A DNA stretch of 63,814 bases, counting the filler, from Folioceros fuciformis (taxonomy: Eukaryota): NCBI GenBank assembly GCA_049999805.1. It is 13 parts of 13 records of this genome, joined end to end, with 100 filler letters (N's around TTAATTAATTAA, not from the genome) between each part and the next. Parts side by side here need not be neighbours in the genome. Positions count along the whole stretch, not along the records: positions 37,340 to 43,110 come from JBNGIO010002937.1; 12 more parts are not named here. One strand, 5' to 3'. A program made the translations under genes and the position numbers. Below the pieces are notes generated by a model. That model did not search any database. It saw only the letters and a list, made by a program, of their open reading frames with translations, and had not been told where the DNA came from. This document shows, piece by piece, positions 3,958-46,510 of the stretch; position 1 is the first letter of the stretch, and every line of letters begins with the position of its first letter.

Positions 3958-3969
3958 TGGTATCAGAGC
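3958..3969 (+). promoter_or_regulatory. Primer-binding site, tRNA-iMet
   Basis: TGGTATCAGAGC. Confidence 0.95.
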
Positions 3970-4014: not shown

Positions 4015-4527
4015 ATGCCGAGGAACAGGTCCAACAACGGATCTGGAGGTAGAGGAGGTTTTGTGAAATCCTTCTCTTGGCCTTCCCACAGATCATCTGT
4101 TCGCTCGCGTACCCCCTGGCCTGGTGCTGCTTTTCAACCTGAATGAGACCACTCTCATTCAGAAAGATGCTTTTCTTATGGATGTCACAAGAAATTCTCT
4201 ACGGCATCCCATACGACTGTTGTAATACCTTGTCAAACTTGCGGGCGCCTATACAGACCTAGTCAATCTTCTGTGAGGAGATTCCCTTCAGCACCTAATC
4301 CCTGCACAAGGAGCACTTTTTCCCCATCGACCTCAATTGGAATGTTGGAAGGATTATTAAATGAAGCAGTTCAGCGACAAGGATTTTTCGAAAAGCGGCT
4401 AGACTCAACAGATCTCAAGATTCACAGATTTCTTGTCAGATTTTCATCTGAAATCATGAAATTGACTCAGCAACTTCAGATCTTTAATGACATATTGCGT
4501 TCCTCTGCTAAGGAGCACCTCGATTAA
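4015..4527 (+). pseudogene. Extra 5' ORF (ORF0) of copia, 170 codons, one internal TGA
   Basis: MPRNRS...SWP...CFSYGC...CQTC...coiled-coil-like C-terminus; same frame as ORF 4273..4527; lies between PBS and gag. Confidence 0.65.
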
Positions 4528-4985: not shown

Positions 4986-7664
4986 ATGGCTGCTGCTTCA
5001 ACACCAACCTTCACAGCAGAGCTGAAAGAAAAAGACACGTTTAATGGGAACCGGTATGAAGTATGGCGTGTTCGGATGAGGTCCAATCTTCGTGCAAGAG
5101 GACTATGGTCAGTAGTAGATGGCTCGTCCCCATAGCCTATACTACCTGTTACTAGAGCTGCTGCTCTAGTTGGAGGAAATTCAGTGACACAAGACGATGT
5201 GGACAAGTGGAACAATCTTAATAGCATTGCTGTTGCTATTTTAATCTCTAGACTTGATGAATGCCTAATCCCTGACGTAGAGTACCTGACCAAGGCCCAT
5301 GAAATATGGAGTCAGCTTGAGAACACATATGCCGTCAAAACTATGTTGACCTTATGTGCTGCAAAGCAAGAATCCTATGCTCTAAGGATGCGGGAAGGAG
5401 AAAGTGTGGCTGCCCACACAAGCAAATTTTGTCACCTTCACTCGCGCCTTATCCAGCTGAACTCCACTATGACTGAAGAGGATGCAGTTGCCCAACTATT
5501 GCTCAGCTTGCCTGCCTCGTATCAGACATTTGTATCACTCCAGAATGGACCCCTTGCTACAACACGTCAGAGTAGATTAGCAAGAAATCAAGTTAATCTA
5601 AGTCTGGAGAGCGTTATAGCTGCACTTTACCAGGAGGAGCAGAGCCGACTTCGATTTCATTCCAGTGGCTCTGGAAAGACCCGAACAGATCGAGTTCTGT
5701 ACACCTCACGTCAGCGTGGAGGTTTTGGGAGAGGACGTGGCAGAGGAGGAAAGTTCACATCTTCTGAACGACAACAACAACAAACCTCTATTGCTGGTCC
5801 TTCTTCTTCTGCAAGGAAACCCGGCAATTGCAACTGGTGTCACACCCCTGGGCATTGGGAGCGGGACTGCCGCAAAAAGAAGGCTGGAGAGTCTCGTCGA
5901 CCCAAGCCAGAGGTTAACTTTGTGAGCAAAGAGAAATCCCCAATCGAAGGAGGCAAAGCAGTTGTCAAGATTTTCACTATCTGTCTATCCTCATCTTCAA
6001 GTGATCTTGGAAGCTAGTATCTTAACTCTGGCGCTACTGCGCATATCTGCAAAGATAAACGCCTACTCAGCAACTACAAGCATATCTACAACTCTAATCA
6101 GACTGTTCTGCTTGGGGATGAACAGAAATCGACAAGTTTGGCGATCAAAGGTCACGGTACATGCCGTTTTTTAATGACTGACAATTCAGTTCTGCATGTT
6201 CTAGGGATTCTTCATGTACCAAGTATGGCGAAGAATCTCCTCTTCGTTAGGTTGCTCGCCATTCACCACAACTTGGAGTTTCGTTTTTTCGGCACCACTT
6301 GCGAAGTATTCAGGAACTTAGAACTTTTTAAGGATCTTTTAGAGCTTGCCTCCCCCACTCGACCTGGTGTCAATGTTGATCCCGATTTCTCTGACAATGA
6401 TAATGTCCCTCTTGATACCTCTGACTTTGATCCTAATCCTGCTCAGTTTCCACAAGGGGATTCCACTGGTGCTCCACTCATCCCAGTTCCTGCACAACCT
6501 GTTGGTCTTGACCCTAATTTGGACCCCAATTTTGTCATGGTCCCTGACCCTGTCCATCCTGATCTCAACCCACCTCTTGATGCACTCCTCCAGCCTCTTG
6601 AGCATCCCCCTGACTTACCAGCTCAAGAGGAGGTCCCTACTGCTCCACCTACTGTCGTTGATCCTTCCATGGCTACCCCTAGACGCTATCCCCTCCGAAC
6701 AAGGCTTCCTCCTTCTCAGTGGGCTGAACTTCCTTATTCCTCCGTCGATTTTCGCCCCTCCGTCAATGCTGCCACTTCAGCTAGGAGTTCCCCCCTTTTA
6801 CTTGACCTCGCTTCTATGGATGAAGCCTATTCTGGCCCAGATGCTGACCATTGGCAAGCTGCAGTAGAGGAGGAATACCAGTCTATCCTTAAAAATAAGA
6901 CCTGGATACTTACAGACTTGCCACCTGGTCGGAAAGCCGTGACGTGTAAATGGGTCTTTAAGACCAAGTTGAATGCTGAAGGTGACATAGCCAGATACAA
7001 GGCCCGTCTTTGTGCTTGTGGCTTTACTCAGGTCCTTGGTTTGGACTACCATGAGACCTTCTCACCTGTTGTCAGAGCACAATCAGTTACGATATTGCTT
7101 GCTGCTGCTGCTGAGATGAACCTAGAATTACACCAAATGGACGTATGTACAACATTCTTGCATGGCGAAATAGAAGAAGAAATATATATGGAACAGCCCC
7201 AAGGTTATGTGGACAAACGGTTTCCAAATAAGGTTCTAAAACTGCTAAGGGCCCTGTATGGCCTCAAGCAGAGCGCTATGCTATGGAATAAGAAGCTGAA
7301 CGAGGAGCTCAATGCATTAGGTTTTGTACAGAATGCTGCAGACTCATCTGTTTATTATTTGGTCGATGACGCAACCTTCTGTATCCTCGCTGTCTATGTT
7401 GATGATTGCATGTTTGCATGCTCCAACATTAGCCTGCTCAACAAAATCAAAAATCTCCTGAGTAGTAAGTTTGAAATGAAGGATGTGGGAGCTCTTAAAT
7501 TCTGCCTTGGTGTTCAAGTACTGAGGAATAGAGAGCAAGGACTCATCGTTATTCACCAAAAGAAGTATCTCACAGAAATCCTGAAGCGTTTTGAGTGGGA
7601 CCAGGCTCGACCAGTTTCCACTTCAAGCTCTGTGGGAGTTAAGCTTACCTCTGACCAGTGCGCC
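4986..7664 (+). pseudogene. Copia gag-pol pseudogene
   Basis: ORFs 4893..5135, 5184..6017 and 6138..7772 are in one frame separated by TAG stops; gag, CCHC, PR and RT motifs present. Confidence 0.93.
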
Positions 7665-8561: not shown

Positions 8562-8562
8562 G

Positions 8563-9132
8563 TGGATTCTTCAAACACAAGATCAGCCTAAGCGTACTCT
8601 TGTTGTGAGGGAGTCATATAATAATCTTCTTGATGCTATCTTCCCTCAACAACGTCATATGTCGCTTGCTCAACCACCCAGGAATCCTACTTATCTTCCA
8701 TTTGTTGGAAACGGTGACCCTAGAGGTTTTTTGACCACACACACATCACCACATATAAGTATGTCACAATTAAATGCTAGGATAGAAACAAATCAACATC
8801 ATGTTGATGAGCGATTTCAGAGCATCTATCACAAACTTGCTGCAATCAGTGTTGACATGCAAGAATTAAAGGAATAAATAGGACATTTGGACTTTAAGTT
8901 GCTAACCTTATTGAAACCTGCTTTGCTTGCAAATCCTGCTCTTAGAGGCATCGCACGCAAGTATGCAAATAAGAAATACAACTTACACACCTTTGATGCA
9001 CCAAATTCTTGTCCTTCTTGCTCTACCTATGCATTTAACAGATGGGAGATTAGAATTCAAAGGATAGCACATGTAGTTGCAAACCTATCTGCCATTTTAC
9101 CTATGGTAGATCACTTTGCAAACCCTTTGTAG
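8563..9132 (+). pseudogene. Extra 5' ORF (ORF0) of copia, at least 189 codons, one internal TAA, 5' truncated by contig end
   Basis: ORFs 8605..8877 and 8887..9132 are in the same frame; coiled-coil-like segment then SCPSC; ends 160 bp before gag. Confidence 0.6.
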
Positions 9133-9291: not shown

Positions 9292-11439
9292 ATGGCTGAC
9301 ACCACTAATCTTAGTGGTGATGGGTTTAAAGAGAAAGACCGGTTTGGGGGGACAGACTATGACATTTGGGTCATGCGTATGCGTGAAGCCCTGCAAAATA
9401 AAAGACTATGGAAGATAGCCACAAGAGAAGAAATACTCCCTGGTTCTTCTTCCCCTAAAGCTACTCCTTCTTTTGCTGAAACGAGATACCAAGAGTCTTG
9501 GTACATTAAGGATGAAGCTGCAATGTATTTAATAAGAAGTGGACTAAACTCTAACATGCTTAGATAGACTTCTGGATGCAAAACATCTGTTGAGATTTGG
9601 TCCAGACTACAAGATCTATATGCAGGTGTAAATACTACAAGTCAGATGACTGCCCTTCAAAATATTCAAAATTGCAGAATGATAGAGGGGGAGACAATTG
9701 AAAAACATATTGGGCACTTTAGGACACTTGTTTCTAAATTAAAAAGTGCTTCTCAGGAAATCCTCAATGATGAGATACTTACCTTGTATTTCATGATGTC
9801 TCTTCTTGGCTTCTGGTCACATTTTGTGACCTCATACAATGCCTCTCAACTTCAAGCTGCTTAGATTGCTAAGGCTGCAAATGTCACTATACCACAAACA
9901 ACATTTTCAGAGATAGTGGGAGCTCTTCTTTAAGAAGAAGCAACAAGAGGAAAGAATAAGCGTGTTGGCAAGCAGCACGCTCTTTACATCACAAACAAAA
10001 ACAAAGGTGCAAGGCCTAACTTTAAAGGTAAACATAATACCTTTCAAGATGCTGGCAGCTCACGGCGAGCTACAACACATAACAAACCCAAAAGGACTCG
10101 AAAACGCAATTGGTGCCAACTTCTAGGACATTGGGAAAATGAGTGTCGGAAGAAGTAGGCCGGAGTACCTCGCAAGGAGGACAATTCCACTTCTGAGACA
10201 TGTGTTGTGGTGAAAAAGCAAGCCTCACCTTCAGCCCCTAACAGTAGGGATAAGGAAGTTTGCAATTCCTCTTGCTAACCCCACCTGTTTGTCTGCAAAT
10301 ATACAAGGTAGACCAAATAATGAATGATACCTTAATACCGGTGCAACATTGCACATATGCTTTGATAGAAATGCTTTTGTCACATACAAACTAGAAGACA
10401 ATCAATTTGTCTACCTTGGTGATGATAGATCACTTGTGTCTCTAGTAGTTCCCTCTGGAATTACACTCACACTGAGAGATGTATATTATGTCCCTGAAAT
10501 GACTAAGAATCTCATCTCTGTTAAGAAAGTAAACTTGGATAATAATACTCACATCCTGTTTACCCCTACAGAGTGCAGGATCATTGATGCCTTTGATCCT
10601 CGCAAGATTCTAGCTTTTGGCTCATCTAAACATGATCTATTTCGCCTGCACACATGCAGTCACACAGCTAAGACACACTTAGCTTCCAACTTTTCATAAG
10701 CAACTAACAAGCTAGAAGAAAAGGCTAAGTTATGGCACGCTCGCCGAGGTCACCCTCATCTGACAATGGTGGAGAATTCACATCCAATGAATTTCAGTCC
10801 TATTGTGTCGCTGAGGGAATAGGTAGACAACTTACAGTTGTTTATTCACCACAGCAGAATGGTGTTTCTGAGCGCTTGAATCAGACTTTGCAGGAAATGG
10901 TTTCCTCTATGTTACATCAAGCCTCCCTGCCACTCCCCTATTGGGTTGAGGCCCTTATGACAACTGTGTACTTGTGCAACAGGCTGCCTACCACTGCCAT
11001 TGTGAGGCAAACCCCCCATGAAGCCTTCTTTGGGAGAAAACCAGCTATCTTGCATCTTCGCACCTTTGGTTGCCTTGCTTATGCTTTTGTTCCTAAAGCA
11101 AAGTGCACCAAGTTAGCTACTAAAGCCAAGAAATATCTCATGATAGGTTATACTTAAGGTATTAAGGCATATAAATTATATGATGTACCTTAGAATCTGG
11201 TGGCTTATGCCCGTAGCGTGACTTTCGATGAAACTCGTTTTTGGCAGCCAGTGGGAGCACTTCCCACCTCCCCAGAGGGTTTTGATTTGTCTGCTCTTTT
11301 TTACATCATAGTTTTTCCTGACCTTCCACATTAGGAGTTTGCTCCTGCAAGAGGGGAAGATAATCAGCAAAATGATGGACAAGTCGTAGAGCAGGCAAAT
11401 GAATTAGTAGTACCTGATCTTGTTGCTGATATACAGGAT
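9292..11439 (+). pseudogene. Copia gag-PR-integrase pseudogene with internal deletion
   Basis: FKEKDRFGG gag start, decayed CCHC knuckle, LWHARRGHP fused directly to SDNGGEF, then PQQNGVSER. Interrupted by LTR family A. Confidence 0.9.
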
Positions 11440-30969: not shown

Positions 30970-33349
30970 TTGTTCAGACGGGTGTGCGTAAGCTGGGGAG
31001 CCAAATATCCTTAAGTGGTTAATACGGGGCCTATGATTAGTCCATCGCTGGAAGGGAGTGGCACCCGAGAAAGCACTCGTAGGTAACCTATTTTCGGATG
31101 TAGACTGCTGTAGCTACGGCTTCTGCCCAGTACTCACGGGAAAGACCAGACAGCTTAAGCATGGACTTAGCAGATTCCTGAAGATGCTTGTTACTGAGCT
31201 CAGCAAGTGGATTTTGCGAGGAAGTATAAGGTACGGTGAGTTGCCTGACTATCCCCAACTCCTTGCAATAATCCTTGAAAGCATTTGATGTAAATTCACC
31301 GCCGTTGTTACTGCACAGTGCAATGAGTGTCTCACCAGTCTACCGTTGTGCATATGGAACGTACTCCTGGAAACAGCCAAGGGTTTGGCTTTTTTCCTTG
31401 ATAAGGTACACCACTGCGTACCTGCTCCAGTTGTCCAGAAAAGTTAAGAAGTATAGGGCTCCGCCTAGGGATGCTGTGGACATAGGCTCGCATAGGTCAA
31501 TGTGGACCAGCTCTACTGCCTTGGTAGCTTGAGTAGGGTTCACATCCTTGTATGGAAGCCGATGATGTTTGCCAAACACACATGACTCACAAAACTGTCT
31601 GTCTGCAAATTGAAGCATAAATCTTTCTCTGTAGAGATTGTTGCTGGCCACCATCGCCTTTAGCTTGTCAAAGTTAACATGAGCAAGTCTGTAGTGCCAC
31701 AACATTACTGCTTCTTTCTTCTTGGTTTCAAGACTGACATTGACATGTGCTTGTGCAGGTTTGAGACCAAGCTTGGAGGAAATGTTCAGCTGATACAGGT
31801 CGTGAAAAGGGGCACCTGTTGCTAAGACCTTATTCTTATATTGGGGATCTGTGACAGTGAATTGCAGGCCTTTAAAAGAGACATCTCGATAGTTGTGTGT
31901 TGTTAACTTGCGTACAGACACAAGGTTTTTGACCATGGAGGGTACATGGAGGACATCCATAAGAACAAGTGTTGTTCTATCTGGAAGTAAGACAGGGATA
32001 GACCCTATGCCTTTGATGTGGAGGCCATTGTCATCCCCAAGAAGTACAAACTGACTAGGTGTCACATTCCTATACTCAGAGAATGACTTCTTGTAGTGAC
32101 AGATATGGGATGAAGCCCCGGAGTCTATGAACCAGACATGCTTATTAGAAGCTGTTGACACCATACAGACAACTAGAATGGTGTTGGATTTGTGGTGAGC
32201 GACATATGACTCCGGTGGAGCTGTACGGCGGGGCTCATTAGCCTTCTTCTTATGGCATTCGGCCTCCCAGTGGCCAAGGATCATACACTAGTTGCAGGGA
32301 CCCTTTTTCTTCGCCAAAGATGCTGCTTGTCGCTTTTTGTACTGTGAGTTGTCACCACTGCTGTTATTTGGCCAAGACTGACGGGGTGGTTGCTTCCTCG
32401 AGCCTCTATTTGTGTAGAGCGCCCGATTTGAAGTCTCTCCTCGGAGGGAGTTGCCACCTCTGCTTGCCTTACGTGTGGACTCTTCCTCGAGAAGAGCTCC
32501 AATCACATCAGACAGAGTGACTGCAAGGGCTTGGCCTGCTGGAGTTGCCTGGGCAAGATTTCGTAGCGACGAGCTTTGATTGCTCACGAAAGTCCAGTAA
32601 CTTTCAGGTAAAGAGAGCAGCAATGCAATAGCAGCCTGCATCTCAGTGGTCTTTGTGCCACTAGAAGAAAGTCTGGATCTCAACATTCTGAACTTGATGA
32701 CATGCTGTTCAACTGATTTGTGTTCCCTCATTTTTAGGTTGTAGAAGTCCCTTGTGGCACTTATCATCGAAGTTCCATTAGTTACTTGGTATACTTGAGT
32801 AAGGGAGTCCCAAACTGCTTTGGTGGAGTCCACATCTCGTGTATGATACATCATGGTTCCATCCAGTGCTGACTGGATGACACATAAAGCTCGTAGATCC
32901 AGTTTGGTCCATGCATCAATATCTGCCTATGCAGATCCCATTGCGGGTTTGGGTACAGTTCCTATCACTACACCCCAAAGATCATGTTCCTTAAGGATGG
33001 TTTGTACCCGTAAAGCCCAAATGTCAAACTATGTTCCGTTAAATCTGTCTTTTTGTTTAAAATCTACTTTCAGATTATGTACAGTAGTGTTGTTAGTCAC
33101 GGTGTTGGGCTGTTGAGCCATATTTGAAACAATTGCGTGTGCTGCAAGTGCAGCTAATTGTGATGTGTGACTGTTTACAGATACGGATGTAGTTGAACTT
33201 GACTGTGAGGACACGGGTGGCTGGTTAAAGGACAGAGGATCGACTACAAAATTTGGATTAGGATTCTGTTGGCGACCCTTGCCTCTACCTATTCCTCTAC
33301 CTCTGTGGTTTGGGTTATGTATTCCCCGCCCTTGGTTGTTGTATGACAT
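30970..33349 (-). pseudogene. Copia gag-PR-integrase pseudogene
   Basis: FKQKDRFNG, CN*CMILGHWEAEC, WFIDSGASSH, WHYRLAH, NGGEFTS and HLRIFGS. Confidence 0.92.
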
Positions 33350-33359
33350 GTGCCCCTGA

Positions 33360-34178
33360 TCACAGGGGTTGAGAAGCCTCGACTTCCAAAGCTTGAAATT
33401 GCTCAAGTTGAGTTGGGAAGGAGGATAGGTATACTTGAGACATTTTCATGAAATCAGCTATTGGTTCTTGCACAACTGAGGTTTTATCTGAGGTTCTGAC
33501 AGATGGTTCTATATGCTGAGCAGTGTTCAGGTTATACACTTGTCGTGATAGGAACTCAACATGGCGATTTAATGAATGAACCTGATTTTTTTACAAAGGA
33601 AATATGTTCCTTGGTGCTATTTGCTTGTGCCTTGACAAGATCGTGAACCTCTGACCGAAGCTTATCAAACGTATATGAAGAAGTGTCAAGATTGCATGAG
33701 CAAGAACTACAAAGGTTGGTGCGTACTAGCATCTTTGCTCTTTGTTCTGAAATCGAGAGTGGTGCTACTATTTCTTGTCAAATTTGATTCCTCAGGTTGG
33801 CAAGGGGATCAGGTTTTTGTACGTACCTATCCTGACTTGTGTTTTGACTCAATCTTGGTTGTGCAAGGGGCTAATAGTGATTTAAGAAGAAACGCTGCAA
33901 TTTGCGATGCTGTTCAGCCACGCTTTGTCCAGGCCTGCCTGCGAACGGGTCACAAGATGGGGTGTTGCGCCTTCCTCTCTATCTCGGCATTGCGCAGGAC
34001 TCAAGAGTAGTAATGCTCTACTGCGTTTGCAAGAAAAAGTATCCGCCATGCCCCCAAACCTGTTGAGAGAGCTTTTCAGTGCAGCAATCACCGCCCAGAA
34101 TTGCTCGTGAAGGAGATTCTTGATGCAATTATTGCTCTTGCAAGTGGCATAGATGCTAGGGGGCGCAATAGGATCCAT
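33360..34178 (-). pseudogene. Extra 5' ORF (ORF0) of copia, ~270 codons, decayed
   Basis: ATG 4 nt after the PBS; CKSNNC; later LCSSCSC then heptad-like LRSEVHDLVKAQ...VHSLNRHVEFLSRQVYNL; stops and frameshifts; ends just before gag. Confidence 0.55.
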
Positions 34179-34181
34179 CCT

Positions 34182-34450
34182 GCTCTGATACCATAAAGGC
34201 TAAGTTAGGATCGCGAGAGATAGAGGCAGATTTGAAGAAAGGGTTATTTGCATTAGGTCGTGGGGCTGCTTAAAAAACATGTGAGGGCGACCGTTGGGAT
34301 TGTGTCCCTTGAACGACGTCGGTTTGGTTTAGGGTGCGACCCTTAGCGGCACCGATACGAATCTATTGATTCGTATTTGGTGCCATTAACTATTTAGCCT
34401 AATTTAATTACTTAAGTAATAACCTAATGCTGGCTATACTCACATTAACA
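34182..34450 (-). repeat. tRNA-iMet PBS (34182-34193) and copia 5' LTR (~34194-34450)
   Basis: TGGTATCAGAGC on the minus strand; LTR start is TGTTAA (34450) or TGTGAG (34444), at the junction with LINE sequence. Confidence 0.75.
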
Positions 34451-36775
34451 GGACCATGATAGAGACGCCTCGCCTCGTTCCTGAATCATAATCTCCAGGG
34501 TTAGTACTAGCTCCTTCCTCTACCGCTCTCGCCCGGACCCACATTGTCCGCCCTGGTAGAAACAACTTTTTTCTTCGTTGTATGTGGTCTGCCGAAAGTT
34601 TGTGTTCCTGAAAGACAAACCACATCCCAGGTGCTGTCCTCTCACAGGAGATGCTGCAACCTGCGACACTTAGAGGCGGATTTTGACCAACCGCCCAAAC
34701 TTCTCACATTCCAAGATAGGACCCATAAGTGGCCCCCCCGCTCGTACTTCCCCATCTGGTCAATATCCATCACCAGTGTCTTGCTTGTTCAATAGCCTTT
34801 GAATTGCATGGGGTTTTGATGCTCAGTCGATGCCGACGCCCCCCATTCCAGCTTGAGGACTATTCGGCTTGAGCTCTTGCATCTTCTTATGTAACCGCTT
34901 TGATTTCCACACGGCCGAGACCACCCTTCCTTCATAAGTTAGAGCTCCCTGGCTTCCCCTTCCTTCTAGGAGCAGAGTCTTCCCAGCGTATGTTTCCATC
35001 CATGGGGCTGATAGGACCCATCGCCACTCTGCCTTTAAAGGAAGCGCCAAGAGATTAGCTTCCTTAAGTTGAATGTCCACCACTTGGTGATCGCGTGACA
35101 TGTACACACCACTATAGAACTCCACTTCCTTCCCCTCTTTGCTCGTTAATACACCTCCAGATGCCAGCATCCTGAAAATCTTCTCTTTTAATGTGCGAGA
35201 GGGCTTTGCAAATATGGACATAGGTGCCACTTCTCCTGCTGGACAAACCATGGCTAGAAATTGTTTTATGCCTCCCATCTTCCTTTCCACTAACACCCGA
35301 ATCTGACTCGCATTCACTAGGTAGGCTGGCACGTTTGGGAGTTTGTCTACGATGGGAAGGGAAGACTTTATCTAACTGGAACTCCCTTCCCCCACCCCAG
35401 AGCACCTTGGCTGGCTTCAATGGTTGTCCTCAACATTAAAGCCAAAGGTTGTCCCCTCCTCTTCAGGGAAGACTGCCAGCACTTCATGCCAAATTGGCTT
35501 AGATTCCTCATCAGCACAGGGGGTAGAAAACAGTTCACCCTATGAGTCAGAAGAAACTATTGACCTGAGGCAATTACTACCCAAGGCCCCGCGTGTAGGA
35601 ACCTCATCACTGCCCTCCCTGGTGATGTCCCTGTACCAGACCTCTTGGTGGATAGTCCCCAAATGTGTCCTCCCCCCAAGTTTACCTTGATTGTGGTCTT
35701 GGCCCATCCTGCATACCCTTGCCTCTTTAAGTTCAGCTGGAGCCAGACCTTTATCAACTTTGATTTTCTTGCCTTCGGGTGAAGCCGCTGCCAGGACCAA
35801 CCTCTGCACCGCTTTGTTAAGAGCCTTCCTCACCACTGCCACAGCAAGTTGGTCTTGCCGCAAAGGAATTCCCAACAAGTCTTCAAATATGCGGGATCGT
35901 TTCCCTTTGCCCGTTTCGAGGGATGCGCTGGAGCTGATTGCCTGCATCCCCACAACCCCGGTCTCCTTCCTATTTGGAACACTGATAGGCCCTCCACAAT
36001 TCGTGATAGGATGTCCATTGTTGTATCTTCCGGGCTCAGGATGAATGAAGTTACCTTGGGGGAGGCTGGGCTGACCTAGGCCTAGCCTTCCAAGTGCCCT
36101 CCTTGTCACCGGACATTATAGCTTCGCCCGTCCTGCAGACTGAATGGCCTGGAGCAGACACACTATCACTGACAACCTCACTAAGTCGGGCTAGAGGCCC
36201 TTGAGTTTCCGGCTGGAGTATCTCCTGTGGTTCCACTGCACTCTTGCCACTAGGATCGCAGCCCAAGGGCCGTTCGGTCTCGCCGAAACCACTAGATAGC
36301 ACTGGACTTCCGCATCCAGAGGGTGTTTCTCCCCCAGCCGGTCCAAGTGCTCCCTTCTGCTCCAAGCATGAGGTCTGGAGCCGACTCGAGAACAGCTCTT
36401 CGCCGTTTGCCACAGCTTCCTGCTGCGCATTTGGCATCTTGCTACACTCGGCTTTAGAGAACTCATCGTAGCCTCCTTCCATGTGGATTCCCCTCCCTGA
36501 TGGGGCGCGTGGAGCACCTCCAGGCGATTCATCCAGTAACATCTCAGCTGCTTCACCGGAGAGTCGGTGGACCGAATCTTGAGCAAAAAGGAAAATTCCT
36601 TGTTGGGGGGTAGGATCCCACCTCACCACCCGATCAGGAGCCTCAAGAGCCACTCTTCCATCTTCGCCATCCAGACTGCTTGGGACTGCATAATCCAGCA
36701 AGTCGACAACAGACCTATCCTCCTACTGCTCACTTGTTGAATCTGATCGACCACACCAACGCTCCCGAGACTAAT
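34451..36775 (-). mobile_element. Decayed LINE (L1-like): AP-endonuclease start of ORF2 plus putative ORF1 region
   Basis: Minus strand ~34730-34451 reads VLSWNVRSLG...WDVVCL/QEHKL...RGVSIMV. Upstream fragmented ORFs are assigned to ORF1 by position only. Confidence 0.7.
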
Positions 36776-37239
36776 TGTGGAGGCAAAACCCTAGGCACTG
36801 ATTGCCAACGAGTTCCACCTTTAGTGGCCACACTTATCCCACTATCGTTGAGACATTGGGTTCCGTTCCCACGAAGGAGCGATGGGGTTCTTTATTGCTG
36901 TGGAAGGAGGGTCGGACTCAATCGACTCGATGATGAATTCGAGGGCTCCCCTCCAACTCCGATTAGGTGTAGGACAGGCCTCACTGTCCAGCGGTCAGCT
37001 GCACCTCTCTCGGTGCCCACTAACTCACTCCAGTCACTACAATGACCCTAACCTCTCAGGTCTGCGACTTCCCTCACTCACTTCACTCGCTCTCTCACTC
37101 CAGCACCAACACCAGCAGCTAACAACAACACCACTAGACAAGACAAGACACATCCTTTACAACCAAGAGCTAGGGGCAAGCCCCTTCACCCTGGTCATTA
37201 CACCTTGTGATCCTACCAGACACTGTACAACCGGCAACA
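36776..37239 (-). repeat. LTR family A, partial and internally deleted copy
   Basis: Matches 11440 onward but lacks most of ~11800-11985; contig ends in the 41-bp array. Confidence 0.9.
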
Positions 37240-37894
37240 NNNNNNNNNNNNNNNNNNNNNNNNNNNNNNNNNNNNNNNNNNNNTTAATTAATTAANNNNN
37301 NNNNNNNNNNNNNNNNNNNNNNNNNNNNNNNNNNNNNNNGGGGAAGGCAGCTCAAACCCTTTTTTTGTGTTCTCTGGAATTGGGAGTGAGGATGAAGAAC
37401 ATTTTCAATGCCTTTGATTCCAGTGTTGCAGTTCATGGCGTAACTTACTGACTCACCAAGCTGCGTGTGTCACGCAACTGCTTTCAAACCCAGATTGCTA
37501 CAAGTCTTTGCTGCAATCTCTTCGAAACATAATCTTCCATTTTCTGGATATGGATTGCCCTCACTTGCAGCAGATTGTGCTGCAATCTGTGACATGCAAA
37601 GTAGTGGGAAACAACACTAGGATACAGGTACAAATGCTAAATGTGCAAGACGGAACCCCAAGCTTCAAGTGGGTGCTGGCCAAGCTCAGGACTCGGCTCA
37701 TCCCAACATTGCCCTAGCACGACAAATTCAGAATTTCTGTAATTAAATCCAAGAAAATAGAAGGGAAAAAGGAAACAGAAATTAAGGGGAAAAAGGAAGG
37801 GGAAGAAAAGGAAATGGGAAGGAATATAGGATACAAAATATGGCATAGGTATAAAATACAAATACAAACTATAGATATAGATAGGGGGGGGGGT

Positions 37895-38115
37895 GCATAT
37901 ATAGACTCCCAGGTGACCCCTCCACTATCAAAGGCCAAGGACCACCCAGCCACCCTGGACTCCTAGCCCGGTTACTAGTTCACCCAAAACCTCATGGTCC
38001 AAGGAGACCTTTGGGTATAAATACCCTGGTCTTATTCTCAGCCTAAGCCACTTTCTTCACCATGTTACAAAAAAAATCAAAGTCCATACATTCTGTCACT
38101 CAAAAAGGGGTTCGC
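37895..38115. repeat. Dispersed repeat shared with 54277-54560, probably gypsy internal non-coding region
   Basis: Shared blocks CATATATAGA, AAAGGCCAAGGAC, CTTTGGGTATAAAYACCCTGGTCTTATTC and CTCAAAA..GGGGTT. Confidence 0.7.
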
Positions 38116-38939
38116 ACATATTTTTTCCCTCTACACCCTCCTAATCCCACATGCACGTATACAGTCAATTTTAGCACACGGGCTCCATCCACATAAAGGC
38201 CAGGCACAAAAATGGCCTCATCTCAATATTGCAACACAATCCGACCCTCTGTTGCAAATGAAGTGCTTACCCCCTCCTCCCGTGGGCTACTCCGGACTGT
38301 CTGCCCTCTGCTCTCCAGTGGTACTGCAAGATCTTCCATCCCCCCAGCAACTGCTACTCCGTGCTCCGTCCTCCTGGTGCGAGTGGCCCTTCCAGACCTG
38401 CGGGTTGCAAGTTCCTGGACAGTTGCTTCTTCCACTACCTTGGTCTTGCTCTCCTCTACCGACATGGTCTCTCTCCAACCGGTAGCTTCTTCCACTACCT
38501 TGGATGGGCTCTCCTCTACCGGCGTGGTCTCTTTCCGACCGGTAGCTTCTTCAACTACCTCCGTTGTAGCTCAACTACCTCACCTGGCTCTACCCTTCCC
38601 CCTTTCACTCTGTTTCGGGCCTCATCCCGCTCCCGCTTGTACCTGTCCGCCAGCTTCTGCACTTTCTCCACTATAGACGCTGCTGTTCCTGGGCCCTCAG
38701 TAATTCATGTTGCATCTCTTGGTTAGTCCCATGGGCCTCTCTCACCTGAGCTAGGAGCAACTCTTGTTGCTCCTTCAACGTCTGCACTTCTCATGCTTGG
38801 CGGGCTTCCTCCTTTGCTTGCTCCTTGGCCGCGCTCAGAGTTTGCCGGATTTCTTCCAGGTGCTGCCGACTCGCTTCGGCCTCGACCAGCTTCTCCCGGG
38901 CCTCGGCCTCCTTCTCCCCCTGCATACTCAACCAGGTCA

Positions 38940-39170
38940 TGTTGCAGATAATTACAATATATATATAATACATTAGTTATGCATTGGGTTACACCTAAAA
39001 CGAAAGGGTAAACCCTAAATACAGTTATGTATCCATTTCACGGGTACAGGCTACATGCTCTTGAACCCCAGCAAATTTAGTCTAGTCCTTGTTGCAATGT
39101 TTTGGTGCGCGCTGAGTTTGATCTAAGAATTTGTCAGTGCATACCAAAAACTTAACTTGGTTTCAGAGCC
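38940..39170 (+). repeat. Copia 5' LTR (~38940-39157) and Met PBS (39158-39170)
   Basis: TGTTG start and TATA run; TGGTTTCAGAGCC has one mismatch to the iMet PBS. Confidence 0.7.
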
Positions 39171-39286
39171 GCAAGGCTCATTCCTTGATGCGCACATGGC
39201 AATTGTTTTTATAATCTATCAGTTATGACTTAATGGTGGGGTTCTTGGACCCTCCAACCAAGTAATCCCTAGTTCTCTCTGGAAGG

Positions 39287-39781
39287 ATGCCTCGCAGAAA
39301 TTTCTGTGCGCAATCCTGGCCAGAGACAAAGGGTAGAAGGGCACGCCACTTGATTGATTCGGAATTCGAAAGGAGGTACTTCAAGAAGTCTGCATCCGAT
39401 GCAGAGAAAGCTAATAGGGCCCAGTTCCTGAGCACCTTCCTTGACTCTTTTGCCTCAGCCTCTAACAGCCATAAGTGCGCATCTTGTGACAAACCTGTAC
39501 CAAGAAATAAGGGAGTTCAGTTCTATCGATCATCAGGTACTGAATACATAAAGAAACCAAAGGCTCAACCTGAGACGTTTTCAAAGCAGGAAGTAATTCT
39601 TAATTCAATTCTAAATATTAAGAGTACAATTTTGGAGTATACTACCAGGATTGATAACGTGTTGTCCAGGCAAGAGAAACTTGAGAGTCTTCATATTTCA
39701 GACCTGATGGCACTTGCAAAACAAGAGCAGGAGATTATTGAACTCAGGGAGCAATTAGCTCACCTGTCTAAAGCTTCCTAG
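39287..39781 (+). CDS. Extra 5' ORF (ORF0) of copia, intact 164 aa
   Basis: MPRRNFCAQSWP...HKCASCDKP...coiled-coil C-terminus; between the PBS and the gag ATG at 39812. Confidence 0.7.
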   Translation: MPRRNFCAQSWPETKGRRARHLIDSEFERRYFKKSASDAEKANRAQFLSTFLDSFASASNSHKCASCDKPVPRNKGVQFYRSSGTEYIKKPKAQPETFSKQEVILNSILNIKSTILEYTTRIDNVLSRQEKLESLHISDLMALAKQEQEIIELREQLAHLSKAS

Positions 39782-39811
39782 GAACTCTCACTGAAGTGGC
39801 TTGCAGGCACA

Positions 39812-41863
39812 ATGTCGGGTGCTACTGCTGACACATCGTCAGATAGGCTGCAAGAAAAGGACAGACTTACCCCAAATAACTATGATGCTTGGAGTTTTAG
39901 GGTGCGTTGCATCCTAGAAGAAAAACTGCTCATGGATGTGGTAGATGGCACTTTACCTAAGAAGGTTGCTGGAATGCCCTCTGGATTGACAACACCAGGA
40001 GGCACGGTTAAGAATTGGAACTTAAAGGACGAACTAGAGTGGGCGTCCAAGGACAGGAAGGCACATACCATACTTGTGTCTTCTGTCTCACAAGAGATGA
40101 TCCCTCATATAAAACTAACCCAGTCCTCAAACGAAGTCTGGTCACTTTTATCTGATACTTATGAGTCAAAAGACATGATGACTGAGGTAGCTGCAACATT
40201 GCACTTCCAAAATCTTTGCATGAAGGAGACTGACTCTGTTGAGAGTCAAGTTGCTAAGTTTAGGGCTGCTAGAGCCAAACTAGCATCTTGCGGAGTCATC
40301 CTCTGAGTCTAGGGCTACTATACAACTGCTAGCCTCCCTCCTTCCTAGTTATGAGCAATTCAGTTCCAATCAGCAAGCAACAGCAATTGTAATTCATGCC
40401 ACTACCACTCAACCTGCATCATCAAACCTCATTGTTCAGAAAGTTGTTGGAGCCATGTTACAGGCTGAAGCCAATAGGAAACATATGGAAAAGGGAGCAT
40501 CCTCCAGTTCCTACAAGCAGAGTGACATTGCCCTCTATTCTGTCAGAGGTCGAGGTAGAGGCAGGGGACGTGGACGAGGTGGCAGAGGGGGTTTTGGAAG
40601 AGGACGTGGATAGTCCTTCCAGCCCAACTCAAACTCCTCTTCATCAACCAAGCCTGGTAACTGCAATTATTGCAACAAACCATGACATTGGGTTAAAGAC
40701 TGTAGGAAGAGGATCAGAGACGAAGCAGCTAAAGGTAAGCACACATCATAATCAAATACAGCATAAGCAAGCACTCTTGGTCTACTGGCGGCGTGCCTTA
40801 TCTCATCAAAGAAGGATGTTAGAAATGGTTCCTTGATAATGGTGCCTCAAACCACAAGTGCTCAAAGAGAAAGTCATTTCTTACTGATGAGTCTTCCCTC
40901 GTTTGCCAGCAAATAGCAATAGTATTGGGAGATGATTCTACAATACCCATGAGGGGTTCTGGAACTATACAGATTACCTTGAAGGAAGGCAGTTTCCTGT
41001 TCTTAGAAAATGCTCTACATGTTCCAGCAATTGCTAAGAATTTGGTTAGTACAATGGCACTTGGAAAGACGAATCAATACAAGATGACTTTTGAAAGCAT
41101 AGAGTGTTACATTTCGAGGTTGCCAGCTCCAACTATTCCCATTGCACGAGGAAAGCCACTCTTTGATCTCGAGGACAAGATTAGATATTAGTAGGGCTGT
41201 TAGTAATGTTAGCCAATTCCTTGAGAACCCAGGAATGGAACACAGGACCATTTTAGGAAACCCTAAACCCTAAAAACCCTAAACCCGTGAAGAGAATATT
41301 TTGTTACTTGAAGGGCACACCTAGAAGAGGTCTCAGGTATACTAGGTAGCCAGATGGACTTGGGCTTTCTGCGTTCTGTGATGCAGATTGGGCAAGAGAC
41401 CCTGATACTCGCAAAAGTGTTGCAGCCTATTGCTGTTTTCTAGGGTAGTTCTGTGGTGTCATGGTCAAGCAAGAAGATGCCCACCATATGCCTTTCCAGC
41501 ACCAAAGCAGAGTATGGTGCTATGACACAAGCAGCTCGGGAGATCTTATGGATTCGCACTTTTCTCAAAGGTTTAGGCAAACTCCCAGCTGGTCCAACTT
41601 GACTATTCTACGACAATCAGTCAGCAATTGCTCTTTCTCGCCATCCTGTTTTTCACACGAGATCCAAGCATATAGAAATATCTCACCATTTCATACAACA
41701 AGCGGTTGACAACAAGGAGGTATTGGTAGAGTACATACCTATAGATGAGAATGTAGCAGATCTACTTACGAAAGCCTTGCCTAAATCCGTACATGAGAGG
41801 CACACATTCGCTGCTGGTGTACAGCAAATTCCAGCAGTGCTCAAGGCTGGAACAGCTCACTAA
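39812..41863 (+). pseudogene. Copia gag-PR / end of RT-RNase H; integrase and most of RT deleted
   Basis: LQEKDRL gag start, CNYCNKP*HWVKDC, WFLDNGASNH; jump near 41170 to VSQFLENPG, CDADWA and RSKHIEI; PPT-like AAGGGAG at 42075. Confidence 0.9.
41252..41286. repeat. Short interstitial plant telomere repeat insertion
   Basis: TTTAGG followed by AAACCCTAAACCCTAAAAACCCTAAACCC. Confidence 0.8.
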
Positions 41864-42101
41864 TTGCTAATAGTCTGTAACTTGGTGTAGGTGTAGCTTG
41901 GGGAGTAGTCTTGCTCTTTCACTTGTTACAAAGTGTTCTTCTTCCCTTTTTCCTAGGTCAACGTTTGTTTGCTCTAACTTTTCTTTGTCACTTTGTGGAG
42001 TGAAACTTGCACCCAAGAACCACCAAGGGGCCACACTTCCCCTTATTATCGTTGCAGTCTTATTATTCGCTCCCAAGGGAGTGAACTAATGTCAAGGTTA
42101 C

Positions 42102-43110
42102 CTACATCTCCCTAATCTCAGCGCCTGGCTCCAAGTTGATCTTGTGCTCCCCCCACTCTTTGGGAATTCCCTTCATGTCTGTCACCTCAAAGGCAAACAC
42201 ATCGATAAACTCAGGCAGGAGTTGCTTCATTCCCCCTTCCAATTTGGCATCCAGCTGTTTGGAAAACTTCAGCACCTTGCCTGGAAACACCTCTACATCC
42301 TTAATTTCATCAGCCTGCACCCATTCACGCTGCACGGGTGCAGAGCTGACTCCAAACCCTTCTTCCGGCTCTCGGGGATCTTCCTCCCTCATTCCCCATT
42401 CCCTGAATAGGTCTTCGGAGGTGAATCTAGTGACCTCTGTATCCTCACCAGCAAGCCCTTTAGACCTTGGGTCACAGTCCCCTTCCCTCATCTCATCTTC
42501 CTTCACACCCCTCTTGGCATGGGAGGCTTTTTCCTGGCCCTTCCCTTCAGCAACTCCAGCAGCCTGTCCTTCCACATTTGCTGCTTCAGCCCCTACCATG
42601 TTGCAGTCCAAGGTGATCCCAAAACACTCGACCCGGTTCAGGGTATAAGAAATATCCCTTCGGTAGTCCTCCTCTTCATCTGTCCATGATATGTGGGAAA
42701 AAGGGAATTTATCTTCCCCTTCCCCCTCCTCCAAATCAGTTGTGTCCCCCACGGACGTGTACCCCTCCGTGTCCGTTGGGGTCTCACCGAGGTAGACATC
42801 CCGGCTCCCGCTCAAACAAATCCTACCCTCCTTTGTCTTGGGGTTCCATTCAGGTGGTTTGAAAGCCACCTCCTTCCTTCCCCATGATAGCCTGCACCTC
42901 GATCCATACAGCCAAGTCCTGCCCAGCAAGATGTCGTAGCCTGGTGCCTTGTGTTGAATGACCACAAAATCGAGAAGGTAGGGAATGGTCCCTATGGTCG
43001 TGGTTACCCCTCTCAGCTCCCCCCCTGGCTGCATTCTAGACATATCGGCCAACCTCAAGACCTTGGTTGTGTGCTCGATCTCCAATCCGAGTTTCTTAGC
43101 GGTATCCTCC
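42102..43110 (-). CDS. Ty3/gypsy pol fragment (protease end, acidic linker, RT start)
   Basis: YDILLGRTWL; EFIDVFAF..DMKGIP...EHKINLEPGA; truncated without an LTR. Confidence 0.85.
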
Positions 43111-43382
43111 NNNNNNNNNNNNNNNNNNNNNNNNNNNNNNNNNNNNNNNNNNNNTTAATTAATTAANNNNNNNNNNNNNNNNNNNNNNNNNNNNNNNNNN
43201 NNNNNNNNNNGACTGGCGCGACTCTAGGCAGTGGCATCTTTCGCGCCCCTCCATCTCCTCTCACCAACCGGTGCACCTATTCCAATTGAAATCGCCCCGG
43301 ATGCTGGTGGACTCAAATCTCTAGGAGGGTCTTCCAAGCTTGTTGACCTCCGCACAGACAGAATTGCTGCTAGCACCTCTTC

Positions 43383-46300
43383 ATGGCTGAGAACACGGAT
43401 CCTCTTCCAGACTCTGTCACCAATCATGGTGTTGCTGGGGTCCTCTTTGGTGGACTAGCGGCATCAGAGGCTTCCTCTTCCCCCACTTTCTCCCTGTTTG
43501 ACGCGCTTGCAAGCTTTGCAGGCTCTACAGGGACACAGCCTCCCACGCGACCACCTTCAATTGAAGCCGCTGCATCCATTTCATGAGGGACTGGAGCCGC
43601 TGCTTCCACTTCCACCTCTGCGCCAGGCGCAAGGCCTTCCAATCCTTTGCCAACTCAAGGAGTTGGGCTTGGGAATCCTCTGCTTGGACAAGGAGTAGGA
43701 TTCGCCAACCCTCTGCCTTCTTTTAGAGCTGGATTAGGGAACCCCTACGCTGGATATGGAGGCGGACTTGGAGCGGGACTCCCCCCCCCCCTCTAAGACT
43801 GTTTGATGGAGGACTCGGTTACCCTGGAGCAGGACTTGGTGCTGGGTTAGGGGCTGGGTTAGGGGCGGGTCCCCTTCCAAATCCTTACCTACAAGTCCCT
43901 ACAGCAGGTGGCTTGCCCCTTCTCCCTCCCTATCCACCAGCCGGTGGTGTCGGCCTTCAACATTTGCTTCCCTATGCAGCACCGAGCTATCAACCTTCTT
44001 ATACAATTGAATTTAAGGAAAAAGATAGGTTTAATGGGAACAAGTACCCTATCTGGAGTGTCCGAATGCGAGCTGCTCTTGAAGCCTGACATGTGTGGGG
44101 AGTTGTGAGTGGGCAGCTCCAACAACCTGCTGTTACTGCCAATCAATTGGATAAGGAAAAATGGGACAAAGCCAACAATGTGGCATGCGCCTTGTTAATT
44201 AGTGGCCTTGATGAAGTTCTGGTGCCAAACGTTGCCTACCTGCCAAAGGCTAAAGACATATGGAACCAGCTTTCACAGACCTACGACGTGAAAAACATTC
44301 TCACCCTGGTAGTAGTTAGAAGCGAGCTCTTCTCTCTTCGCATGCGGGACAATGATAAAGTAGCTGTTTTTGTGGCAAAGTTTAGACACTTACGTTCTCA
44401 ACTTGCTTCACTTGGTTCCCCCATGACCGAAGTTGATGCAGTCACACAGCTGTTGACCAGCCTGCCCAATAGTTACCAGCCTTTTGTCTCGAGTTATGGA
44501 GCATCATTAAGACATGTTGCCAAGGCTATGGCTGCAGGACAACTTGTACAGATCAGTTTCAGAGACGTTATTGGGGCTTTGTTTCAGGAAGAGCAGACAC
44601 GTATAGGCTCTCATTCCAACTCTGGCCGAACTAAAATGGACAAGGTGCTTTACAACTCTAAGTCACGGCCTCCCCACACAAACAATAAACACAAGACTAG
44701 AAACTCATTTGCAGCTAGCCCTTCGAAAGACTCGAAACCAAGTCAAATCAAACGCACTGGCTCCAGCAACTGGTGCAAATATGCTGGTCATTGGGAGCAA
44801 GAATGCTGTAAAAAGAAATTTGGAGACCCTAAACGAGCTGATCAATCCCAAAAGGGGGCTGCAGCTCATGCCGTTTCCAAGGCCAGGCCATCTTCAGGCC
44901 AAACTTCCGGTAAGCAGCCGGTGGTAATGACAACTTGCTTGTCTACTTCCTCCAAGGTAGATAACTCCTAGTACTTGGACTCCGGAGCAACGACGCATAT
45001 CTGCCACAATCGAAGCTTGATTAGCAACTTTGTTCCTCTTCATACCTCTGAGAGGGTGCTGCTAGGTGACGAGCTCATCCGTTCAAGTCTAAAGATTTTG
45101 GGCAACGGTTCCTGTTACTTTTAGAACTCCAATGGCCGATGTTTCCAACTTGACGAGGTCCTTTATGTCCCTGACATGGCTAAGCTTTTGCTATCTGTTA
45201 GTCAGCTTTTACGGTTAAGTGCCTACACACTCACCTTTACCTCCACTGGCTGCAACATTTTTCAGACAGGTTCTGTTAAGTCGCTAGTTGCCCAGGGCCT
45301 CTTAGAGAATGACCTTTATCATCTTGGCATGCAATGCGTCCCTACCCGCAACATTCACCTGGTTGCTAAGTCCCAGCGAGTTTTAGCACAGCTTTGGCAT
45401 GCCAGATTAGGTCATGCCAACCAGGACAAGCTGATCCGTATGTCTATCCTCGATTGCTATAGGAAGCCCTTACCTAAGTGTTTCAAAGAGCTACCTACCT
45501 ACACTTCCTGTATTGTCGCTAAGCAGAAAGAGCTTCCTTTTCCCTCTACCCCTACATATCGAACTTCCACGCTTTTAGAACTTGTCCACGCTAACACTTC
45601 TGGGAAGATCCATGTGGCATCACTCGGAAGTTCTCTTTATTATCTGACCATCACCGACGATTACAGTTGGTACTCTTGGACATTCCCCATGAAACGGAAA
45701 TCGGATACCTTTCAATATTTCCAAGAATGGCTGGTCATGATTCAACGCCAAACAGGTTGCCTTCTTCGCTGCATCCAGTCTAACAATGGGACTGAATTTG
45801 TGAATTCACCTTTCAATGAATATCTGGCAGCACTGGGTATTACTCGTTAGCTCAGCATTCCATACACTTAGGAACAGAACGGCGTCGCTGAGCGTAAGAA
45901 TCAGACCTTACTTGATATGACGAGGAGCATGCTTGCCTGGTTTGGATTAAGCAAGGCATACTAGGCAGAAGCGATTGTCACCGCTACTTATATTTTAAAT
46001 AGACTCCTTACCTCTACTATGCCTGATCGTACACCCTTTGAAGTCATGTGGAAACGCAAACCTAGCCTTCTTCACCTTCGGGTTTTCGGGTCCCCGGCTT
46101 ATGCTCTCATTCATGCTGCCCAACGCAAGAAACTAGATGATAGGGCCCGTCCCCTTATTTTTGTCGAGTATGGCGAAGAATCTAAGGCCTATAAACTCTA
46201 TGACCGGCTTACTTGCAATCTAGTTTTTGCCCGCAGCGTTAGCTTTCGGGAGCTCGTTAACTCTGCCCCTTCCTCTGACGGGCTTGCTCCTGAGTCCTCT

Positions 46301-46510
46301 TTCGACCAGCCTGAGTTCGATTCTTATCCCTCTGAGTATTCCCAGGATGCTTCCTATGAACTATCCCCTGCCCTTTTTCCTGTGGCAGTTGGCAGTTCAG
46401 GGGGTGGAATTACTAAGCAGCCTGGAATTGCAATACAGTCTGGACAACCATCTGGATTTCAAGCTCCATCACCTGCCCATACTATTGACTCACAGTCACA
46501 GCCAACCTCA
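43383..46510 (+). pseudogene. Copia gag-PR-integrase pseudogene with Gly/Pro-rich N-terminal extension
   Basis: FKEKDRFNG, NWCKYAGHWEQEC, *YLDSGAT, WHARLGH, NNGTEF and QNGVAER; closely related to 51482-54176. Confidence 0.92.

Follow-up and report, generated by a model that had tools for sequence, protein, structure and literature searches.

A candidate accessory open reading frame upstream of gag in Ty1/copia elements of Folioceros fuciformis

Extra open reading frames (ORFs) of long terminal repeat (LTR) retrotransposons are found upstream or downstream of gag-pol, most often on the 3' side (review PMC7264820; here and below, statements on cited papers follow the excerpts available of them). 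Here we describe an intact ORF of 164 codons, termed ORF0, that precedes gag in a Ty1/copia element, E4, within a stretch of 63,814 nucleotides (nt) from Folioceros fuciformis (assembly GCA_049999805.1), referred to as the window. In our reading, to which we assign a probability of about one half, it would be a genuine accessory ORF that evolves fast and belongs to the 5' region of one Ty1/copia group.

In kind, ORF0 resembles the accessory genes known so far chiefly from gypsy-type elements. Tekay-type 5' ORFs are known from the rice elements Retrosat2, RIRE3 and RIRE8 (PMC3485330) and from sunflower Tekay 13-2 (PMC11728184). Like ORF0, they are sense ORFs located between the 5' LTR and gag-pol and have no homologue outside the elements. 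They also diverge fast, the similarity between RIRE3/8 and Retrosat2 being 30-34% for ORF0 and 69-70% for ORF1 (PMC3485330). The sunflower protein contains a nuclear localisation signal and three helices, is otherwise disordered and, according to the excerpt, shows no amino acid similarity across species (PMC11728184). In contrast to the elements analyzed here, which are Ty1/copia with a primer binding site (PBS) of the initiator-Met type and, in the case of E4, an apparently short LTR, the Tekay-type elements are Ty3/gypsy chromoviruses with LTRs of ~3 kb. In addition, the 5' ORF protein of Tekay 13-2 has ~400 amino acids, whereas the frames here have 164-190 codons, and the sunflower 5' ORF is conserved in 500 of 523 copies (PMC11728184). 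Ogre elements likewise carry a sense extra ORF upstream of gag that is typical of the whole lineage; they differ in belonging to the Tat clade of Ty3/gypsy and in encoding the plant mobile domain pfam10536 in 57% of the elements (PMC6317226), whereas ORF0 matched no Pfam family.

Within copia, the excerpts of the REXdb study report extra ORFs in 582 elements and 45 groups and name the 3' ORF of SIRE alone as typical of a copia lineage (PMC6317226). This env-like eORF-3'F resembles the present case as a heterogeneous copia extra ORF, found in 74% of SIRE elements and in 19 groups with little mutual similarity (PMC6317226). It differs in its place downstream of pol instead of ahead of gag; of the present elements, the contigs do not contain the 3' parts. 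The original prediction had contrasted 5' extra ORFs of gypsy elements with the 3' ORF of SIRE, and the literature searched agrees. In the full-text literature searched, a scope outside which the REXdb ORF lists per lineage lie, we found no 5' ORF described as characteristic of a copia lineage. In the excerpts of the bean and Medicago surveys only 3' extra ORFs are reported for copia or Athila elements. REXdb counts extra ORFs of at least 250 codons that lie outside tandem repeats and apart from the polyprotein frame (PMC6317226). ORF0 of E4 lies outside tandem repeats, contains none itself and is, with 164 codons (broken frames of the other elements: 170-190), below that threshold; since only ORFs of at least 250 codons are counted there, ORFs of 160-190 codons are not surveyed in REXdb.

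Between the 13 contigs (3-8 kb each) that make up the window lie spacers composed of 44 N, TTAATTAATTAA and 44 N (at 8462-8561 and 11 other places), so that elements adjacent in the window are not necessarily adjacent in the genome. The genome is plant-like, and the contigs consist for the most part of LTR retrotransposons, nested and decayed, next to a few host genes. To the four elements of the original prediction, located on contigs 1-8461 (E1), 8562-12707 (E2), 30592-37239 (E3, minus strand) and 37340-43110 (E4), this analysis adds a fifth on contig 43211-46510 (E5). The contigs carry only the 5' parts of these elements, and no LTR pair was found for them in the window. E1 to E5 are Ty1/copia elements sharing one gag type. 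Pfam searches detected Retrotran_gag_2 and DUF4219 across E1 to E5 and Pol_BBD in E1 to E4. E5 has Pol_BBD in a C-terminal piece (E = 0.00023) and, in addition, gag_pre-integrs (detected in E3 as well), SH3_retrovirus (detected in E2 as well) and rve. RVT_2 was detected in E1.

Both a gag motif and a GHW-type knuckle had been described as common to the gags. The motif is present in all five elements, each of which has an ATG 11-20 codons ahead of [FL][KQ][EQ]KD[RT] (FKEKDRF-type). The knuckle (CxxCxxxGHWxxxC) occurs at five places, namely in E1, E2, E3, E5 and a gag remnant at 25329, and was not found in E4 when the gags were scanned for the motif. Identity to the E5 gag is 24-45% for the other elements, and their DNA does not align between elements outside pol, showing that they are different families within one gag type. 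In a further, sixth gag of copia type, at 26285-25440 on the minus strand, the [FL][KQ][EQ]KD[RT] motif is absent and the knuckle is of the GHF type. The tail of contig 5 (24240-25387) was considered as a sixth element and rejected, as only a degenerate gag remnant is present there.

The PBSs of E1, E3 and E4 were identified with what we take to be the initiator-Met PBS motif. The TGGTATCAGAGC PBS occurs at 3958 in E1 and at 34193 (minus strand) in E3, and together with the site of E4 this bears out the prediction that such a PBS lies ahead of the frame in three elements, E2 being cut by the contig edge. Long leaders separate the PBS from the gag ATG, with 640 nt in E4, 1016 nt in E1 and 1060 nt in E3; those cut by contig ends measure at least 730 nt in E2 and ~800 nt or more in E5. 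A fourth perfect initiator-Met PBS motif (16550-16539, minus strand) lies 8 nt from a contig start (16531), and its element runs off the contig. Most copia groups use the complete tRNA-Met as primer, and half-tRNA-Met primers are used by Bryco, Osser and part of Gymco-II (PMC6317226); the PBS of full-length tRNA-Met type argues weakly against membership in Bryco, Osser or the half-tRNA Gymco-II.

The intact ORF0 of element E4

The intact ORF0 of E4 is real as a sequence feature (Table 1). It starts 117 nt downstream of the PBS, and the gag ATG (39812) follows 30 nt past its end in the same frame. To assess chance, the longest stop-free sense frame of each leader was compared with 2000 dinucleotide shuffles. 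The stop-free frame of E4 comprises 171 codons, a length reached by a single one of 2000 shuffles of the 640-nt leader (p = 0.0005); the length of the ORF counted from its ATG was reached by none. We also calculated a codon-frame score, using as training set 20 copia segments of the window that have Pfam support (leave-one-out range 0.102-0.231), and compared it with 108 other stop-free frames of at least 90 codons (95th percentile 0.154, maximum 0.193). ORF0 of E4 scored 0.159/0.190, the value of 0.159 being inside the copia range and above the 95th percentile. Its codon usage resembles that of the copia genes of the window. An accidental origin of this ORF is unlikely, and it is probably a true gene of its family.

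The copy itself is decayed downstream of ORF0. Across gag and protease (39812-41182) tblastn revealed at least two frame changes, with a shift near 40290 and the original frame regained at the protease. With at least two such changes in ~1.4 kb, an intact ORF0 of 495 nt is compatible with equal decay. Near 41990, E4 is cut by another element, whose ORF (43043-42102, minus strand) contains, by eye, a retropepsin-like DILLGRTWL and has no Pfam match.

Reads of two DNA runs from one sample (X1 and X2) were placed at a likeness of at least 80%. The summed contig depth was 47-80 in the bins of ORF0 and 26-187 over gag-pol; with a depth like that of gag-pol, ORF0 belongs to the repeated unit, a diverged multi-copy family. 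Upstream, the depth drops from 615-670 (38498-38883) to ~50 (39077-39269), placing a repeat boundary near 38900-38950. Among the best-supported differences listed, four are in ORF0 (39329, 39331, 39343 and 39538, at codon positions 1, 3, 3 and 3), too few for a selection test. One diverged contig of 369 nt (record 5 of X1) covers 39144-39512 with 41 differences and no gap, and record 12 of X2 looks like the same locus.

The ORF0 protein of E4 (164 amino acids) has a basic N-terminal part, a C64-A-S-C67 pair and a C-terminal helix (100-163). In a single-sequence AlphaFold2 (AF2) model, this helix of 64 residues has block pLDDT values of 81-96; two weak helices are modelled at 11-31 and 38-59, and the segments 1-18 and 57-91, the latter with C64 and C67, have a pLDDT below 50. 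The Cys-x-Ser-Cys pair is predicted to lie in a flexible region.

Each of the four leader frames had been said to contain a CxxC. CQTC (E1), CPSC (E2) and CASC (E4) are located as stated, whereas CSSC of E3 is in a different frame. All four are of the type Cx[ST]C, which occurs in translations of the window at a rate of 0.056 per 170 codons (CxxC in general: 0.26-0.29 per 170 codons). A Cx4C in two elements (E1 and E3) and an MPR…SWP start in two (E1 and E4) were likewise found. The heptad-like segments were checked with a crude, self-made score and 300 residue shuffles. Such a segment was recovered in E1 and E2, where no shuffle reached the score, and in E4 (2 of 300); the two pieces of E3 did not stand out (33 and 24 of 300).

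These data bear on the alternative that the leaders are long noncoding regions, holding structure for packaging, dimerisation or translation control, in which frames, Cys pairs and helices arose by accident in each copy. We regard this as unlikely. Consistent with it, the longest stop-free frames of E1, E2 and E3 are not significant taken alone (p = 0.085, 0.04 and 0.28), and in the E3 leader an antisense frame is longer than the sense frame (124 versus 108 codons). Furthermore, the E4 leader has a better RNA fold than any of its 20 shuffles (z = -3.0) and contains several short ORFs ahead of ORF0, the standard pairwise tests described below are not significant, and no homologue was found. The length of ORF0 in E4 is difficult to reconcile with such a noncoding leader, as are the codon-frame scores of E4 and also of E2 (0.180/0.174), which fall in the coding range. 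The same applies to the confidently predicted helix of 64 residues, the presence of Cx[ST]C in four of four leaders despite its low base rate, and amino acid patches that are common to families and written in different codons.

Decayed leaders of the other elements and their similarity

The original prediction had placed four separate frames of 164-270 codons before gag. The frame of E4 is intact; the other three are broken. In E1 the frame begins with an ATG 46 nt after the PBS, and the gag ATG (4986) lies 458 nt beyond its end in a different frame. For E3 the claimed frame (34178-33360) contains six in-frame stops, and since the CSSC sits outside it, this frame is a composite. One piece of the E3 leader (33445-33122) shares the frame of gag.

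Several observations weigh against reading ORF0 as a genuine accessory gene with remnants in the other leaders. Three of the four are broken (one stop each in E1 and E2, six in E3), and the distance from the ORF0 stop to gag ranges from ~12 to 458 nt. The gags of these copies are themselves broken, and breaks in the leaders are therefore to be expected whatever the leaders once were. The codon-frame score of E1 (0.084/-0.001) is noncoding-like, the motif order differs in E2, where the coil precedes the CxxC, and two thirds of the AF2 model of E4 ORF0 are of low confidence (mean pLDDT 64.9, pTM 0.32). Four ATGs lie between the PBS of E4 and the ORF0 ATG, each opening a short upstream ORF, and ATGs are not depleted in the leaders of E1 (18 versus 13.8 expected) and E2 (14 versus 13.9). 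Searches for homologues of E4 ORF0 yielded none among proteins of near or longer length and none in 1.84 billion protein representatives (phmmer). The E2 frame, with X at its stop, had no homologue in the protein search, E4 ORF0 had no match in the metagenome contigs of JGI, and a metagenome contig scan with the E4 gag was empty as well. In Pfam, searched up to E = 1, the leader frames gave only sub-threshold rows and no family; a PDB sequence search returned only chance-level rows (E of at least 0.1), and Rfam gave no match.

The similarity between the leader frames also remains at the level of hints. Within the window, tblastn between leader frames returned nothing below E = 0.1, and Smith-Waterman scores reached a z of at most 1.2 against shuffles for any pair. 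The score of E2 against the CSSC-holding piece of E3 was reached by 13-14 of 1000 shuffles, that of E1 against E4 by 22 of 1000, the latter with loose gaps only. A self-written frameshift-aware alignment of protein to DNA, tried on 12 pairs, yielded z = 3.8 for both E4-E3 and E2-E3 when 60 simple shuffles served as reference. Of 500 dinucleotide shuffles, 11 reached the score of E4-E3, 11 that of E2-E3 and 33 that of E4-E2. A p of ~0.02 for two of 12 pairs fails correction for the number of pairs tried. Homology of the four frames, whose proteins the original prediction had called too divergent for a proof by eye, could not be demonstrated by standard alignment, and the frameshift-aware method adds only these two pairs. 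When 246 real 1-kb windows served as comparison, E2 scored highest on the E3 leader (58; next 55), and for E4 this leader (55) came second to third, below a host coiled-coil gene (57). An open frame of more than 578 codons that runs into a contig edge (46563-48299, minus strand), coiled-coil-rich by eye and without a Pfam family, gives the top chance-level score to the helical ORF0 of E4 in this alignment control.

Short patches of amino acids are common to some of the leaders; all of them were found post hoc, which again counts against relatedness. Across the 127,624 residues of the six-frame translation, the pattern MPR, at most 30 stop-free residues, SWP has two occurrences, which are the starts of the E1 (4015) and E4 (39287) frames. 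CxxC(G)RLYR is found in the leaders of E1 and E5 only, RLYR occurring four times in the whole six-frame translation. The E4 sequence VPRNKGVQFYRSSGTEYIKKP resembles APRNH-ISFVKKSGS-FIKSP of E3, read across the E3 frameshifts (a PRN…SG…IKxP patch), and the path through the E3 leader resembles E4 ORF0 at 33661-33363 and E2 at 33346-33160. The shared Pro, Arg and Ser of MPR…SWP and the Arg and Leu of CxxC(G)RLYR are encoded by different codons, which fits protein-level rather than RNA-level constraint. Taken together, the alignment results and patches are hints of relatedness and not proof.

A related question is whether the ORFs are real and unrelated. Each family would then have gained a short ORF independently, by evolution or by capture, in a long leader that tolerates it, as has been proposed for many extra ORFs of plant LTR retrotransposons. 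The lack of robust similarity between families and the different motif order in E2 agree with this. So do the extra ORFs of REXdb, which are highly heterogeneous with 45 copia groups and for which the authors suggest independent acquisition or fast evolution (PMC6317226), and the Tekay 5' ORFs, for which the excerpt reports no amino acid similarity across species (PMC11728184). We nevertheless consider separate origins rather improbable, because the frames share place, strand and size class (164-190 codons), because E1, E2 and E4 have the same coarse build of a basic start, Cx[ST]C and an amphipathic helix, because MPR…SWP and CxxC(G)RLYR are common to families, and because no cellular homologue points to capture. 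Decayed remnants at the same place with only short amino acid patches in common suggest that ORF0 is most likely old and evolves much faster than gag. Judged from these sequence comparisons, it is plausible that ORF0 is an old common feature of this copia group.

The frame relations raise a further explanation, according to which ORF0 is an N-terminal extension of Gag whose stop is peculiar to the decayed copies or is read through. In E4, ORF0 and gag share one frame with one TAG and ten codons between them, and the E2 frame is shared with gag as well. In E3 no stop interrupts the gag frame over the 108 codons ahead of the gag ATG; this stretch has an ATG at 33347 and resembles the start of the E2 frame. 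The gag frame is also open upstream in E1 (42 codons) and E5 (~95 codons). However, sharing a frame has a chance of one in three, all five gags have their own ATG 11-20 codons before the KEKDRF-type motif, ORF0 of E1 is in a different frame and 458 nt away from gag, and four in-frame stops separate the E2 frame from gag. Among the differences listed, none falls on the TAG of E4 (39779-39781), a site that is covered by reads. Directly before the gag ATG lie a pyrimidine-rich tract of ~120 nt in E1 (4860-4985) and a Gly/Pro-coding low-complexity tract in E5 (~43700-44010). These tracts keep the gag frame open upstream and can therefore be mistaken for coding extensions; such DNA is stop-poor anyway. 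We give an extension of Gag little credence and continue with ORF0 as a separate accessory ORF.

Feature coordinates and neighbouring sequences

The features of the five elements are listed in Table 1.

Table 1. Features of elements E1 to E5 in the window
Feature	Position	Strand	Details
E1 PBS	3958..3969	+	perfect initiator-Met type; motif match
E1 ORF0 relic	4015..4527	+	170 codons; in-frame TGA 4141-4143; MPR…SWP, CFSYGC, CQTCGRLYR, C-terminal amphipathic segment
E1 gag	4986..6014	+	DUF4219, Retrotran_gag_2; in-frame stop at 5133
E2 leader frame	8563..9132	+	contig edge at 8562, without starting ATG; in-frame TAA 8875-8877; heptad segment and CPSCSTYAFNRW
E2 gag, start region and middle	9292..9861	+	broken; DUF4219, Retrotran_gag_2; gag motif at 9325
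E3 gag	32291..33121	-	in-frame stops (one at 33028); motif at 33061, knuckle at 32275
E3 PBS and leader relic	33122..34193	-	PBS 34193-34182; frameshifted over three frames; open pieces 34178-33885, 33777-33559, 33590-33363
E4 putative short 5' LTR or LTR remnant	38941..39157	+	TGTTG start; end directly abuts PBS; boundaries inferred
E4 PBS	39158..39169	+	initiator-Met type; TGGTTTCAGAGC, 11 of 12 matches, 1 mismatch
E4 ORF0	39287..39781	+	intact, 164 codons, ATG to TAG (39779-39781)
E4 gag, N-terminal 164 codons	39812..40306	+	Retrotran_gag_2 E = 1.5e-18; frame broken beyond
E4 protease region	40826..41182	+	Pol_BBD E = 6.6e-18; tblastn
E5 leader relic	43508..43558	+	CKLC-RLYRDTASHATTF, matches E1 CQTCGRLYRPSQSSVRRF
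E5 gag	44012..44968	+	Retrotran_gag_2 E = 2.3e-27; gag motif and knuckle

The pol frame of E1 (6018-7769, plus strand) is open over 584 codons and encodes Pol_BBD (residues 1-80), a Pro/Asp-rich stretch and RVT_2 (residues 293-535); Pfam detected no integrase domains in it. E1 looks like an internally deleted copy in which the protease runs straight to reverse transcriptase without integrase.

Just upstream of the E4 LTR a repeat was found in which a coiled-coil-like frame (38630-38950, minus strand) is related to another on contig 12 (58608-59081, plus strand), with ~70% DNA identity. The best Pfam row for these two frames, SOAR, is below threshold (E = 0.0046, 17.3 bits versus a cut-off of 25). 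Over most of the unrelated repeat upstream of 38900 the read depth is 220-800. Where the other repeat cuts E4 (41972-42164), the depth exceeds 6000 (11617 summed in X1), and this part is also covered in run X4, which we guess to be RNA. X4 has zero depth over ORF0 and at most 0.65 over gag-pol, values without bearing on expression. In a further run, X3, C>T (182 places) and G>A (209 places) strongly outnumber all other changes on 37340-43110. This is a pattern of a bisulfite-type library, and the differences in X3 were therefore not taken as variants.

Elsewhere in the window, a repeat of ~780 bp with 41-bp tandem units and 90-94% identity occurs at the ends of four contigs (11439-12207, 20323-21103, 36775-37239 and, in reverse, 51070-51482). 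Probably this is an LTR or a repeat with a satellite, abundant enough to interrupt the assembly. A host gene for a histidine kinase (HisKA, HATPase_c) with at least three long exons and introns of ~60-110 nt is located at 60595-63813 (plus strand).

Translation and proposed role of ORF0

If ORF0 is a separate accessory ORF, it would be translated from the full-length RNA ahead of gag, and gag would be reached by leaky scanning or reinitiation, across a spacer of 30 nt in E4 and an AUG-poor ORF0. Between the ATGs of ORF0 and gag in E4 only two ATGs are present in 522 nt (39399, out of frame, and 39707, in frame), compared with 6.9 expected (P = 0.0095); the E4 gag, taken as comparison, has 11 versus 9.5 expected. 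The E3 leader has 9 ATGs versus 15.9 expected (P = 0.0145). The context of the ORF0 ATG in E4 is A at -3 and C at +4. An intron over the second half of E4 ORF0 (GT at 39537 and AG at 39806, by eye) was considered and dropped as numerology.

We infer the function of the ORF0 protein from its build alone. The protein may oligomerise via the C-terminal helix, and the basic part, perhaps together with Cys pairs that bind zinc between subunits, could tether this accessory factor to nucleic acid or the particle.

A comparison with plant pararetroviruses suggests itself. Caulimoviruses have a coiled-coil virion-associated protein, and rice tungro bacilliform virus has AUG-free upstream ORFs and employs leaky scanning. 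Common to these viruses and the present elements would be a gene for a small protein, helical or basic, immediately ahead of the capsid gene, a polycistronic RNA and AUG-poor upstream ORFs that let ribosomes through. They are, however, another virus family that is related to Ty3/gypsy, AUG depletion is seen here in two of four leaders, and the comparison is an analogy only.

A more far-reaching proposal extends ORF0 to an entire group of Ty1/copia families in this genome as a positionally conserved and very fast-evolving 5' gene, whose product combines a coiled coil with a basic part and a Cx[ST]C pair. As the first cistron of a bicistronic RNA, kept AUG-poor to let ribosomes pass on to gag, this gene would correspond in copia to the 5' ORFs of Tekay and Ogre and to the small pre-capsid proteins of plant pararetroviruses, and it may encode a zinc-bridged oligomeric factor of the particle or of anti-silencing. 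We put this forward tentatively and think it more doubtful than sound.

Extra genes of plant LTR retrotransposons are common and unexplained. Should ORF0 not be real, it would be one more chance ORF within a decayed repeat. If it proves genuine and lineage-typical, both superfamilies would have given rise to small 5' accessory genes, and ORF0 would provide a natural case of gag translation behind a long upstream ORF. The protein would be compact, with 164 amino acids, one long helix and one Cys pair, and thus easy to assay for oligomerisation, nucleic-acid binding, particle assembly and silencing.

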